Source: Patescibacteria group bacterium (GTDB taxonomy: Bacteria > Patescibacteriota > Patescibacteriia > UBA9934). Taken from it: 64,000 nt of DNA. Under the pieces are notes generated by a model that was not told the origin of the DNA, ran no database searches, and saw only the letters and a program-made list of their open reading frames with translations. A program made the translations under genes and the position numbers. This document shows positions 455 to 3,421 of the stretch, in pieces (within the stretch, counting starts at the first letter, position 1; every line of letters starts with the position of its first letter). The DNA lies in assembly GCA_041660165.1 (NCBI GenBank), contig JBAZWW010000002.1, positions 43,290 to 107,289 on the forward strand, read 5' to 3'.

Positions 455-3421
455 ATGTCAGACGACAAAAAATCCGCTCATTCCGCGCAAGAACTCGAGA
501 TCCTCGAGTATTGGAAAAAGAATAAGGTCTTCGAGCGCTCGGTGAGCGAGCGCCCTGAATCAAGGCCGTACACGTTTTATGATGGCCCGCCGTTTGCCAC
601 CGGCATGCCTCATTACGGGCACATCGTCGGCTCTGTCATGAAGGACGTTATTCCTCGCTACCAGACGATGCGTGGGTTTCGCGTAGACCGCCGTTGGGGT
701 TGGGACTGTCATGGACTTCCTATCGAGAATATCGTCGAGAAGCAATTCGATCTCAAGAGCCGAAAGGACATTGAGGCTTACGGCGTGGGCGCTTTTAACG
801 ACCGCTGTGAATCAACGGTGCTCAAGTACGCTGAGGACTGGAAAAATGTGATTAACCGCCTTGGCCGGTGGGTAGACATGGAAAATGCGTACCGCACCAT
901 GGACCGCCCGTTCATGGAATCCATTTGGTGGGTGTTTTCTACGTTGTGGGAGAAGGGCTACATTTATGAAGGGAGAAAGGCGATGCAAATCTGCCCTCGG
1001 TGCGAGACTTCACTCTCGAACTTTGAAGTTGCGCAAGGTTATCTCGACGTAACGGACATTTCAGTTACCGTATCCGTCGAGCTGACGAGCGGGAAGTACA
1101 AGGGCGCGAAAATTCTCGTTTGGACCACGACTCCTTGGACTCTGCCGGGCAACGTTCTCCTCGCTGTTGGCGCTGATATGGAATACTCGCTCGTTGAAGA
1201 GTCAGGCGAGAAGTACATTTGTGCGTCGAGCAGACTCGGTCATGTTTTCAAGGGCAAAGAACCAAAGGTGATCGAACAGTTCGCCGGCAATAATCTGGTC
1301 GAGTCCACTTACAATCCCATTTTCCCGTATTTCCATGACCATGGAAATGCTTTTCGAGTGGTCTCGGCTGATTTCGTGACGGATACTGATGGCACGGGCA
1401 CGGTTCATATAGCCCCAGGCTTCGGAAGCGACGACATGATGCTCGGCGAGGCTGAAAAGGTGAAACCGCTCATGCATGTGAAGATGAACGGGCAGTTTGT
1501 AGATGAGGTAGCCAAGCCAATGACGGCCGAGGGATATCCTGTGGATGGCGTGCCGATGAAAGCGAAGGGGGAGTACTCCGTGATAGACATTCAAATCATC
1601 AAGTGGCTGGCACACAACGGAAAATTATTCGCCAAGGAAAAAATCGTTCACAGTTATCCGCATTGCTGGCGCTGTGACACCCCGCTTTTGAACTACGCCA
1701 CGAGTTCGTGGTTTGTTCGAGTATCCGAAATGAACGATCAGTTGCTCGCCACAAACCAAAAGATCAATTGGGTGCCGGATAACATGAAAGAAGGTCGATT
1801 TGGTAAATGGCTCGAAGGCGCCCGCGACTGGGCAATTTCGAGATCCCGTTATTGGGGTACTCCGCTCCCGGTTTGGAAAAGCGAAGACGGCGAGATTATT
1901 GTTATTGGTTCCGCCGAAGAACTCGAAAAGTTTGTCGGTCACAAGGTCGATAACCTCCACAAGCACGTGGTCGACAATTTGGTGATCGAGCGCGACGGTA
2001 AGGAGTTCCGTCGTATCCCCGAAGTGCTCGACTGCTGGTTTGAGTCTGGCTCAATGCCCTACGCTCAGTTGCACTATCCATTTGAGAATAAAGAAGCGTT
2101 CGAGGCGAAATTTCCGGCTCAATTCATCGCCGAAGGCCAGGATCAGACTCGCGGTTGGTTCTACACGCTTCACGTTCTTGCAAACGCGCTTTTCCAAAAG
2201 CCAGCTTTCGAGAACGTCATCGTGAACGGTATCGTGCTTGCAGAAGACGGCAAGAAGATGAGCAAGCGCCTGAATAACTACCCAGATCCCATGGAAGTCA
2301 TGGAAAAGTACGGCGCTGACGCGGTCCGTTATTATTTGATGTCTACTCCCGTTGTCCGTGCCGAGAATTTGCGGTTTTCCGAGGCTGGCGTGGATGAGGT
2401 CAGTAAGAAGTTCATCACGATCATGAAGAATTGCGTCAGTTTCTATAGGTTGTATGCCGAGCATGATGATCACAGAAAGCCAAACGGCGAACATGTTCTC
2501 GATGCCTGGATCCTCGCCCGCCTGAATGAGACTCTTGAGTCTGAAACAAAGTCCATGGAAGCGTACGAGCTGTCCGAGGCCGCTCGCGTTCTGCAAAGTT
2601 TCGTCACCGATCTTTCGCAATGGTACGTCCGACGCTCGCGCGATCGAGTCAAAGTTGACGGAGATGACCGTGCCGAGGCACTTGCGACCTTGCGTTACGT
2701 CCTCGAAACCTTCGCTAAGATGACCGCTCCCTTCATGCCATTCTTGGCCGAGATGATTTGGTTAGATCTCCAGTCCCTGAGCGTCAGCGAAGGGCCTACC
2801 GGACGTCGCGATTACGCTATGTCCGGCCCCTCGAAGCGCGAAGAGCGAAGTGGGGGAGGTGGCGGATTGGCTCAGGACGGTGGCTCTGTCCACCTCGAAT
2901 CATGGCCAACTGCCGACAAGGTTGATGCGAAGGTCCTAGAACAAATGGGCGAAGTCCGCGCCATCGTTTCGCGAGTGATGGAAGTCCGCGTGGAATCCGG
3001 CATGGCCGTTAAACAAGCCCTCGGTTCAGTAGAGATCACCACTCCGACCGGCAAAATCAGCAAAGAACTCCAGCCAGTCATTCTCGACGAAACAAACATC
3101 AAAAAGTGCTCCGTCAAAAAGGGCGAGCTTAAGGTCGAGGTTGATTTGAAGCTTACGCCCGAGTTGGTTCGTGAGGGCATTGCTCGGGAAGTTACTCGAA
3201 AAGTAAACGGTTTGCGAAAAGACACGGGCATGACCATTGCTGACAGAATTCATCTCTATATTTGGTCAGATTCCCAGGAAGTCGTGAAAATGTTTGAGGA
3301 ATTCTCCACCGAACTCGCTGTAAATACGCTCGCCTCTAAGGTCGAATTCGGAAAGAAAGAAGGGCTGGCGAATGTAGCAAGTTTCCGGGTCGCGGAGCAG
3401 GATTTGAGCGTAGGTTTTTGA
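455..3421 (+). CDS. ileS: isoleucyl-tRNA synthetase
   Basis: HIGH motif (PHYGHIVG) and KMSKR, a WAISRSRYWGTPLPVW motif, and class I editing-domain length. Contains a Gly-rich in-frame insertion (see findings). Confidence 0.95.
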   Translation: MSDDKKSAHSAQELEILEYWKKNKVFERSVSERPESRPYTFYDGPPFATGMPHYGHIVGSVMKDVIPRYQTMRGFRVDRRWGWDCHGLPIENIVEKQFDLKSRKDIEAYGVGAFNDRCESTVLKYAEDWKNVINRLGRWVDMENAYRTMDRPFMESIWWVFSTLWEKGYIYEGRKAMQICPRCETSLSNFEVAQGYLDVTDISVTVSVELTSGKYKGAKILVWTTTPWTLPGNVLLAVGADMEYSLVEESGEKYICASSRLGHVFKGKEPKVIEQFAGNNLVESTYNPIFPYFHDHGNAFRVVSADFVTDTDGTGTVHIAPGFGSDDMMLGEAEKVKPLMHVKMNGQFVDEVAKPMTAEGYPVDGVPMKAKGEYSVIDIQIIKWLAHNGKLFAKEKIVHSYPHCWRCDTPLLNYATSSWFVRVSEMNDQLLATNQKINWVPDNMKEGRFGKWLEGARDWAISRSRYWGTPLPVWKSEDGEIIVIGSAEELEKFVGHKVDNLHKHVVDNLVIERDGKEFRRIPEVLDCWFESGSMPYAQLHYPFENKEAFEAKFPAQFIAEGQDQTRGWFYTLHVLANALFQKPAFENVIVNGIVLAEDGKKMSKRLNNYPDPMEVMEKYGADAVRYYLMSTPVVRAENLRFSEAGVDEVSKKFITIMKNCVSFYRLYAEHDDHRKPNGEHVLDAWILARLNETLESETKSMEAYELSEAARVLQSFVTDLSQWYVRRSRDRVKVDGDDRAEALATLRYVLETFAKMTAPFMPFLAEMIWLDLQSLSVSEGPTGRRDYAMSGPSKREERSGGGGGLAQDGGSVHLESWPTADKVDAKVLEQMGEVRAIVSRVMEVRVESGMAVKQALGSVEITTPTGKISKELQPVILDETNIKKCSVKKGELKVEVDLKLTPELVREGIAREVTRKVNGLRKDTGMTIADRIHLYIWSDSQEVVKMFEEFSTELAVNTLASKVEFGKKEGLANVASFRVAEQDLSVGF
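2774..2797 (+). repeat. palindromic repeat family copy inside the ileS CDS (TCCCTGAGCG-tca-GCGAAGGGCC)
   Basis: The core TGAGCG-nnn-GCGAAGG is identical to the intergenic copies. The surrounding about 108 nt encode an insertion in the IleRS C-terminal region. Confidence 0.55.

Follow-up and report, generated by a model that had tools for sequence, protein, structure and literature searches.

An in-frame palindromic repeat in the isoleucyl-tRNA synthetase gene of an Uhrbacteria lineage, probably tolerated as a loop

The gene for isoleucyl-tRNA synthetase (IleRS) on a contig of a Patescibacteria bacterium (Uhrbacteria, a lineage of the candidate phyla radiation, CPR) carries a lineage-specific in-frame insert that comprises both halves of a short hairpin repeat, a family otherwise found mostly between genes. 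We analysed a 64,000-nt stretch of this contig, hereafter the window, to which all coordinates refer. Taken together, the data make it very probable that a palindromic repeat, of the type of repetitive extragenic palindromes (REPs) or Rickettsia palindromic elements (RPEs), was inserted in frame in IleRS and survives there as a filtered, tolerated loop. The host gene and the parts of the insert, the latter scored in part with a covariance model (CM) of the repeat, are as follows.

455..3421, + strand: IleRS coding sequence, host of the insert (open reading frame [ORF] and translation; 988 aa; type 2, eukaryote-like)
2771..2881, + strand: entire lineage-specific insert, 37 codons, Q773-G809, in the linker past the last helix of the anticodon domain
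2771..2798, + strand: 5' half of the repeat unit, CAGTCCCTGAGCGTCAGCGAAGGGCCTA, identical at 28/28 nt to the orthologous copy of locus L001 (CM E 3e-9)
2799..2855, + strand: second insertion, nested in the unit at CCTA^GAGG and exactly 57 nt (19 codons) long
2856..2881, + strand: 3' half of the unit (GAGGTGGCGGATTGG), then GCTCAGGACGGT, the latter common to L001

The IleRS ORF matches the Pfam domains tRNA-synt_1, Anticodon_1, and DUF5915, and its closest solved structures are cytoplasmic, yeast, and Priestia type-2 IleRS together with the Thermus thermophilus enzyme (1ILE). The inserted peptide, QSLSVSEGPTGRRDYAMSGPSKREERSGGGGGLAQDG(G), is bounded by conserved ...PFMPFLAEMIWLDL on the left and SVHLESWP on the right. 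In an alignment of 120 homologues (from Uhrbacteria and other Patescibacteria, where the source is named), the equivalent linker measures 2-13 aa in about 115. An earlier reading of this DNA from sequence alone had proposed about 36 extra residues and a maintained reading frame in an essential gene; the insert indeed amounts to 37 codons, and the frame is open and unbroken across all 111 nt.

The same sequence-only reading had traced the insert to the core of intergenic repeats, and this origin is supported by motif statistics. The IleRS copy contains TGAGCGTCAGCGAAGG at 2778..2793, an exact match to the pattern TGAGCGNNNGCGAAGG, which occurs six times in the window against 0.12 expected matches, a count reached by none of 100 dinucleotide shuffles; the five other matches are intergenic or lie at gene edges. 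Upon synonymous codon resampling of QSLSVSEGPTG with the codon usage of the window, the motif was kept in just 0.57% of 200,000 trials. The nucleotide similarity thus withstands a codon-shuffled control and is not a product of the peptide, which excludes amino-acid convergence as the source of the insert. An intein or intron is also excluded, the 37-aa open frame being devoid of such motifs. Judged by its sequence, the IleRS insert belongs to the intergenic repeat family as one of its copies.

The repeat unit consists of a hairpin whose stem has tandem G·A pairs, followed by a CTAGAGGTGGG..ATTGG tail, its core spanning ~36 nt (12 codons) and extending to ~45 nt with the tail. It takes the form CAG-TCC-CYGAGCG-NNN-GCGARGG-GYCTAGAGGTGGG(-YTATTGG), and the consensus of 19 copies reads (t)gCATTnG TCCCYGAGCG TAG GCGARGGG YCTAGAGGTGGG YTATTGG. 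Within the 5' half of the IleRS copy, a hairpin scan placed the hairpin at 2775..2794 (CCCT-GA-GC[GTCA]GC-GA-AGGG, with tandem G.A/A.G pairs). Scanning the 64 kb for this structure yielded 13 related hairpins of the form stem-Y-GA-RY[3-4 nt loop]RY-GA-R-stem, and only a subset of them has the tail 3' of the hairpin. Two stem pairs covary perfectly among the 19 copies (CG in 11 and UA in 8; UA in 12 and CG in 7), with zero broken cells, and in the 222 kb comprising the window and related loci, the covariance model built on them detected 25 copies with E below 1e-6. Peptides that copies of the element would encode include SLSVSEGPTGR and EVQSPSVGEGPR.

Beyond these loci, the exact unit is rare. 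A 29-nt pattern of hairpin plus tail, for which about 0.1 chance matches are expected in 596 Gb, was found at nine sites in 2 metagenome-assembled genomes (MAGs) of Uhrbacteria type among 185,579 species-representative genomes, five of them in the Candidatus Uhrbacteria MAG CAWGHH01 and four in GCA_964348985.1 (CAYGEQ01); three JGI metagenome contigs have it as well. None of the viral contigs searched contained the pattern, and nothing thus points to a phage vector. No Rfam family matched when the entire window was scanned at gathering thresholds, nor when positions 1..17000 were scanned at E up to 1, and a concatenated 87-aa peptide query for host proteins retrieved 94 word-sharing candidates, none of them at E up to 10.

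In the window, the IleRS site reads CAGTCCCTGAGCGTCAGCGAAGGGCCTA + 57 nt + GAGGTGGCGGATTGGCTCAGGACGGT, and its 3' half, which covers the last ~15 nt of the unit (2856..2870 and onward), agrees with the tail CTAGAGGTGGGCTATTGG of the intergenic copies. The nested 57 nt fold into two hairpins, at 2799..2826 (CCGGACGTCGCGATTACGCTATGTCCGG) and at 2827..2855 (CCCCTCGAAGCGCGAAGAGCGAAGTGGGG), the former being the CCGGAC...GTCCGG palindrome and the latter of the type CCCC...GGGG. This palindrome had been pointed out before, and it is real; its supposed mirroring of a compound repeat at 8426..8486 found no support, since a blastn-short search for a further copy of the nested 57 nt in the window and related loci (222 kb) gave only chance matches of 9-13 nt. 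The L001 ortholog lacks the 57 nt, and its unit runs contiguous. As read from these alignments, the IleRS insert is composite: one repeat unit, later split by a 57-nt nested insertion. In the CAWGHH01 locus L014, at positions 478-553, an intergenic unit bears a 21-nt expansion in its hairpin loop; nesting or expansion thus also affects copies outside genes.

Relatives provide both filled and empty alleles of the IleRS site. The unit is uninterrupted in P0001 (loci L001/L002; 94% identical outside the insert), as CAGTCCCTGAGCGTCAGCGAAGGGCCTAGAGGTGGCGGATTGGCTCAGGATGGT, and in P0003 (L003/L004; 87% identity), as CAGTCCCCGAGCGAAGGCGAGGGGCCTAGAGGTGGGCTATTGGATGGT, which agrees with the intergenic consensus over its entire length; in L001 and L003 the contiguous unit reads CAGTCCCYGAGCG...GCGARGGGCCTAGAGGTGG(G/C)..ATTGG. 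On the other hand, P0242, P0243, P0244, and P0002, 91-92% identical to the window IleRS outside the insert, are empty and have the short linker LGK(K/E)D-SVHL, in line with the proposal that the insert is lineage-specific. The first three of these (954-956 aa) belong to the 90% cluster of the window protein itself. The LGKxD linker is shared by P0004 and a distant clade (P0024, P0028, P0031), and the GKxD residues are missing from the filled alleles. A neighbour-joining (NJ) tree of 931 ungapped IleRS columns, with the insert masked, has the topology ((window, P0001), (P0244, P0243, P0002, P0242)), then P0003, then P0004, and filled alleles fall on three separate branches, namely window plus P0001, P0003, and P0010 (75% identity). 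These alleles differ in stem subtype (CCCT/AGGG vs CCCC/GGGG vs ACCCT/AGGGT) and in both the left and the right junction; the P0010 copy is partly triplicated and directly abuts SVHL, and upstream extensions of the inserted copy are seen in other lineages. Because the filled lineages are not monophyletic, at least three gains of the unit in IleRS appear likely from the sequences.

A separate observation concerns the source of P0003. The CAYGEQ01 loci (L004, L006, L008, L011, L013) are titled 'uncultured Gammaproteobacteria bacterium', yet the Uhrbacteria-type IleRS that this assembly encodes, P0003, is 87% identical to the window protein and lies in the same gene neighbourhood as that of the Uhrbacteria-type locus L005. 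The 'Gammaproteobacteria' label of GCA_964348985.1 looks wrong.

The element also resides in frame in a second essential gene of the window, that of valyl-tRNA synthetase (ValRS).

42421..45081, + strand: ValRS coding sequence, second essential host (886 aa)
43726..43761, + strand: in-frame 36-nt unit in ValRS, CAGTCCCCGAGCGTAGGCGAGGGGCCTAGAGGTGGG, read as QSPSVGEGPRGG (CM 62 bits)

The ValRS copy is read in the same frame of the unit as the IleRS copy. In the empty ortholog of locus L021, AAG GGC GAG is followed directly by GAG TTA GCC, exactly these 12 codons being absent, and the ValRS insert thus comprises 12 codons. ValRS is filled at the same place in P0122 (89%) and P0126 (77%) and empty in P0125, P0127, and P0128, while P0148 has a different G.A hairpin in the same loop (GTCATCTCGAGCGAAGCGAGAGATCTT, read as VISSEARDL). 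A third host is a hypothetical gene next to ruvA, which in L005 carries the unit forward (LILSVGEGFRRGLV) and in the L003 ortholog (80% identical) carries it reversed at the same site (CM E 2e-11).

Translation of the 19 copies revealed a marked asymmetry of reading frames. Forward frames +1 and +2 of the core contain TGA and/or TAG, and +0 alone is open, encoding QS(L/P)SVGEGPRGG; the reversed unit has two open frames. Frame +0 is used by every forward genic copy (8/8), and the reverse genic copy uses an open reverse frame, the CAATAG of the unit being changed there to CAATCC. A length that is a multiple of three, the stop-free frame, and a permissive site together explain this pattern.

Structure prediction located both inserts in regions of low confidence, nearly coextensive with the inserted residues, within otherwise well-predicted folds. 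In the AlphaFold2 model of IleRS (63-sequence alignment; mean predicted local distance difference test [pLDDT] 86.3), residues 778-807 have pLDDT values of 31-44 and no secondary structure, bracketed by helix 762-776 (~96) and by residue 811 onward (~95); the only other segments below 50 are aa 1-4 and 598-607. The model superimposes on type-2 and yeast IleRS structures with template-modelling (TM) scores of 0.84-0.88. In 1ILE, L769 closes the helix and SVHL begins at 780; the site thus corresponds to a 9-10-residue linker (770-779) that joins the last helix of the anticodon-binding domain to the C-terminal part. The ValRS model (mean pLDDT 87.6) has a single segment below 50, QSPSVGEGPRG (aa 436-446), which sits at a tip joining two strands; the counterpart of this region in T. 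thermophilus ValRS (1GAX) is a Cys-rich stretch, CEDCQ...CEACG. The models agree with both inserts being tolerated disordered surface loops, the position that the sequence-only reading had predicted for IleRS.

These findings suggest a simple course of events. The element multiplies at the DNA level, and a copy that enters an essential gene would survive only if the added length is a multiple of three, only in the single stop-free forward frame of the unit, and only at a permissive surface loop. Such loops would include, in IleRS, the linker between domains and, in ValRS, the tip of a beta-hairpin in the catalytic body, both apparently struck repeatedly in related lineages. The Gly/Ser/Pro/Glu-rich peptide would then be translated as a disordered loop and tolerated by the enzyme. 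Inserted copies evolve further: in the window, a second, double-hairpin segment of 57 nt entered the first exactly at CTA^G.

Outside the IleRS and ValRS genes, the window holds the following copies and related hairpins.

3420..3461, + strand: full intergenic unit GATCCTGAGCGCAGGCGAAGGATCCAGAGGTGGGCTATTGGA (CM 63.9 bits), its first bases overlapping the TGA of IleRS (3419..3421)
6381..6400, - strand: hairpin copy adjoining the composite palindrome 6290..6367 (motif, scan, CM)
8427..8447, + strand, and 8481..8502, - strand: convergent pair of related G.A hairpins (scan, CM)
15983..16014, + strand: intergenic copy, hairpin with degenerate tail (hairpin scan, CM)
55880..55901, - strand: hairpin copy, in a convergent pair with the related hairpin 55830..55853 (+ strand) (motif, scan, CM)
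57229..57271, - strand: full intergenic copy, antisense to its two neighbours, a DHH-family ORF and nusA (CM 71.2 bits)

Copies are mostly intergenic, often abut stop codons, and occur in both orientations; the stop TGA of ORF 7210..8433, for instance, is part of 'cTGAgc' within hairpin 8427..8447. In samples that were not picked via host genes, about 3/16 of the copies are genic (seven model-type window copies plus nine genome-scan sites).

Two composite palindromes, 6290-6367 and 7289-7371, are ~80 nt each and mutually 85-92% identical; each is built of two inverted G.A-type hairpins flanking CTGATTGGCCAATCAG, and together they flank a ~0.9-kb ORF with a weak DHH-family match. A further inverted repeat pair (41917-41974 / 62835-62892; 58 nt, 86% complementary, 20.9 kb apart), with its first arm upstream of ValRS, is unrelated to the hairpin family.

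Several observations weigh against a tolerated insertion of a mobile repeat, a reading in which retention of the element in the mRNA and its translation are themselves predictions. Pfam detected no transposase domain in about 43 ORFs of the window, comprising all but a few of those of at least about 135 aa, and there are no terminal inverted repeats, the ends of the unit (CATTNG... and ...CTATTGG) not being complementary. ATTGG stands on both sides of many intergenic copies and is missing to the left of the genic ones, and the 3' ATTTGG in ValRS coincides with native Glu-Leu codons; the flanking ATTGG could be a target duplication or a preferred target. The intergenic DNA of L001 and L002 is too diverged to align an empty site for the 3420 copy. 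In addition, the number of gains is taken from a distance tree and would be lower if lineages had exchanged alleles by recombination. The unit is, moreover, more conserved than its host genes. Between the window and L001, the IleRS unit is identical at 51/54 nt against a background of 0.83 (P = 0.01), and at 16/17 third positions against 0.60 (P = 0.002), and the ValRS unit is identical between the window and L022 at 34/36 nt against 0.81 (P = 0.02), both differences forming one compensatory stem pair (C-G to U-A). A purely passive, neutral passenger does not predict such an excess, for which either selection on the hairpin or homogenisation of the copies by gene conversion would account.

Part of this could be accommodated if the segment had not been transposed but had arisen by copying of a nearby repeat, whether through templated repair, template switching, or gene conversion, driven by the very stable GCGAAG-type hairpin. 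A full copy does lie only 650 nt downstream, at the IleRS stop codon (3420..3461), no transposase, terminal inverted repeat, or clear target-site duplication was seen in the window ORFs scanned and the aligned copies, and one copy (L020) has an internal partial triplication that is typical of slippage. We nevertheless deem this route unlikely, because the 3420 copy is of a different subtype (GATCCT...AGGATC vs GTCCCT...AGGGCC) and the same sharp-ended 36-nt cassette is found in unrelated genes. There is also little to commend a single ancient insertion in the IleRS linker followed by precise losses or recombinational allele exchange. It has in its favour that linker position and reading frame are identical in all filled IleRS alleles, and that for the local topology ((window, P0001), empty clade), P0003, a single gain with one loss takes as many steps as two gains. 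However, a loss would need to rebuild the LGK(K/E/T)D residues that sister and distant empty clades share and filled alleles lack; stem subtypes and junctions differ between the filled alleles, P0010 (75% identity) is far off in the tree, and the opposite orientations at one site of the hypothetical gene are incompatible with a single event. An assembly or binning artefact, that is, a chimeric join through a repeat, is hardly credible. Although repeats are a classic cause of misassembly and the nested 57 nt have been seen only in the window lineage, the frame is intact over 111 nt, the exact 988-aa protein occurs on 2 contigs and under two NCBI protein accessions, and the filled allele without the nested part was recovered in independent assemblies (ENA and JGI for L001/L002, ENA and NCBI for L003/L004).

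The excess conservation bears on the idea that the hairpin is kept in coding sequences for a nucleic-acid-level function of its own, as a binding or processing site on the mRNA or as a DNA signal, with the protein loop as a by-product. The compensatory base-pair change between the ValRS copies of the window and L022, the stem covariation across the repeat family, and synonymous unit positions above the gene background (the IleRS third positions given above; ValRS P about 0.02) all speak for it. Conversely, the element occurs in both orientations with respect to transcription, as in the antisense intergenic copy 57229..57271 and the reverse genic copy of L003, which argues against a purely sense-RNA function, and G.A pairs turn into C.T mismatches on the complementary strand. 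Close relatives have the same genes without the element, no Rfam family matches the hairpin, and gene conversion by other copies, or a recent origin, could also produce the excess. On balance, such a function is a minority possibility that we would not discard lightly. Rather more far-fetched is a site-selective mechanism that repeatedly writes the 12-codon cassette into the same loops, its base-pairing then being kept by selection within essential coding sequences; the cases that can be offered for it are the IleRS linker, the ValRS hairpin tip, and the site in the hypothetical gene with its two orientations. If true, it would amount to a CPR-specific system linking a nucleic-acid signal to loop innovation in translation enzymes. 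In-frame insertion of a palindromic repeat, filtered and tolerated as a loop, is thus the reading that we retain.

Other repeats of the window have also entered, or appear to have entered, genes. A second, unrelated palindromic repeat (AAAGCGGGGTTTCAAACCCCGCCCAGGT...) is in frame in two genes, at 9425-9460 and 58591-58626. The former copy lies in the FemAB-like ORF 9055..10029, reads SGVSNPAQVA, and is missing from the L003 ortholog, the loop being occupied in L005 by a different insert of 14 aa; the latter falls within the part of nusA that encodes the C-terminal tail (ESEVSNPAQVTD). This repeat seems to have intergenic relatives in the perfect palindromes GGCGGGGTTTAAACCCCGCC at 14123 and 34874. 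In NusA (57273-58646), the Pfam match to NusA_N (119 positions) stretches over aa 41-202, and in YidC (58650-59456) the 60KD_IMP domain (163 positions) stretches over aa 33-241, which points to inserts of about 45 aa in each protein; that of NusA does not obviously derive from a repeat when its DNA is inspected. A 'VMLSEAKIL' stretch of NusA was considered as a copy of the hairpin unit and rejected, there being no hairpin copy at the DNA level. The RNase P RNA (23026-23553, - strand; class A, 115.5 bits) measures 528 nt against a 367-position model and has four expansions, namely an enlarged P3 loop, +18 nt, 65 nt replacing 6, and an ~80-nt insert. A copy of its P3 hairpin, 86% identical, adjoins tRNA-Leu at 54149-54185, and this sequence match suggests that repeats may have entered a structural RNA gene as well.

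Selfish palindromes in genes have been described in Rickettsia and in a few REP families of proteobacteria and verrucomicrobia; the IleRS and ValRS inserts extend this phenomenon to a CPR lineage with a reduced genome. They also constitute a natural experiment, with filled and empty alleles of two essential synthetases in relatives that are 75-94% identical, several independent strikes on the same loops, and a nested second insertion. Repeat insertion would be a simple source of new loops in highly conserved proteins, and short lineage-specific Gly/Ser/Pro-rich loops in these proteins may be repeat copies rather than adaptive insertions and can mislead alignments. The sequence-only reading had likened the insert to RPEs and taken it as new for CPR genomes. 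The likeness stands, and we found no literature report of such intragenic palindromes in CPR or Uhrbacteria; comparable insertions have, however, also been described in other bacterial groups (PMC3733652), so that the behaviour is not peculiar to Rickettsia.

[quoted passage not shown] The window unit resembles them in being non-autonomous and in its occasional in-frame insertion or supply of C-terminal residues or stop codons. It differs in that MITEs are 70-400 bp long with terminal inverted repeats and target-site duplications, neither of which is demonstrable for the unit. REPs are closer in size. GTAG- and CGTC-tagged REPs of 20-40 bp are intragenic in several species, including in tRNA synthetase genes, may supply stop codons, and may occupy the same position in recB orthologues, as described by Di Nocera et al. 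(2013, PMC3733652). Like them, the window unit is a 20-40-bp imperfect palindrome forming a stem-loop, mostly intergenic, near ORF 3' ends, present as singletons and, in related hairpins, as convergent pairs, and giving or overlapping stop codons (IleRS, 3419..3421; ORF 7210..8433). Unlike them, it has no terminal tag in the 19 aligned copies, GTAG being the hairpin loop in 13/19, and combines conserved tandem G.A pairs in the stem with a conserved single-stranded tail. As regards the REPIN/RAYT system, the Pfam scan of about 43 ORFs in these 64 kb detected no RAYT transposase; three convergent hairpin pairs exist (6298/6400, 8427/8502, 55830/55901), their partners being of different subtypes, and the tail-bearing unit is mostly a singleton.

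The nearest parallel is offered by the RPEs (Ogata et al. 2000, 2002), which the passages devoted to them in PMC10969869 and PMC3733652 describe as in-frame palindromes in housekeeping genes, with a peptide compatible with the host fold and an insertion viewed as selfish DNA filtered by selection. As in that description, the window unit belongs to a palindromic family that lies between genes and also in frame within unrelated housekeeping genes. Strict membership in RPE-1 to RPE-10 does not apply, the unit being set apart by its host and by the size those passages give (about 100-150 bp, and about 150 bp for RPE-1, vs 36-45 nt here). Unlike in Rickettsia, the host is an Uhrbacteria/Patescibacteria lineage, the exact unit was found in only 2/185,579 species representatives, and the same loops have been struck repeatedly and in both orientations. 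At the level of an RPE-like functional class, the correspondence is nonetheless close: the family is dispersed and hairpin-forming (13 hairpins in 64 kb, 25 CM hits, covariation), its in-frame copies in IleRS, ValRS, and the hypothetical gene of L005/L003 are missing from orthologues, and the encoded peptide is predicted by AlphaFold2 to lie at the surface with the fold intact (TM 0.84-0.88 for IleRS).

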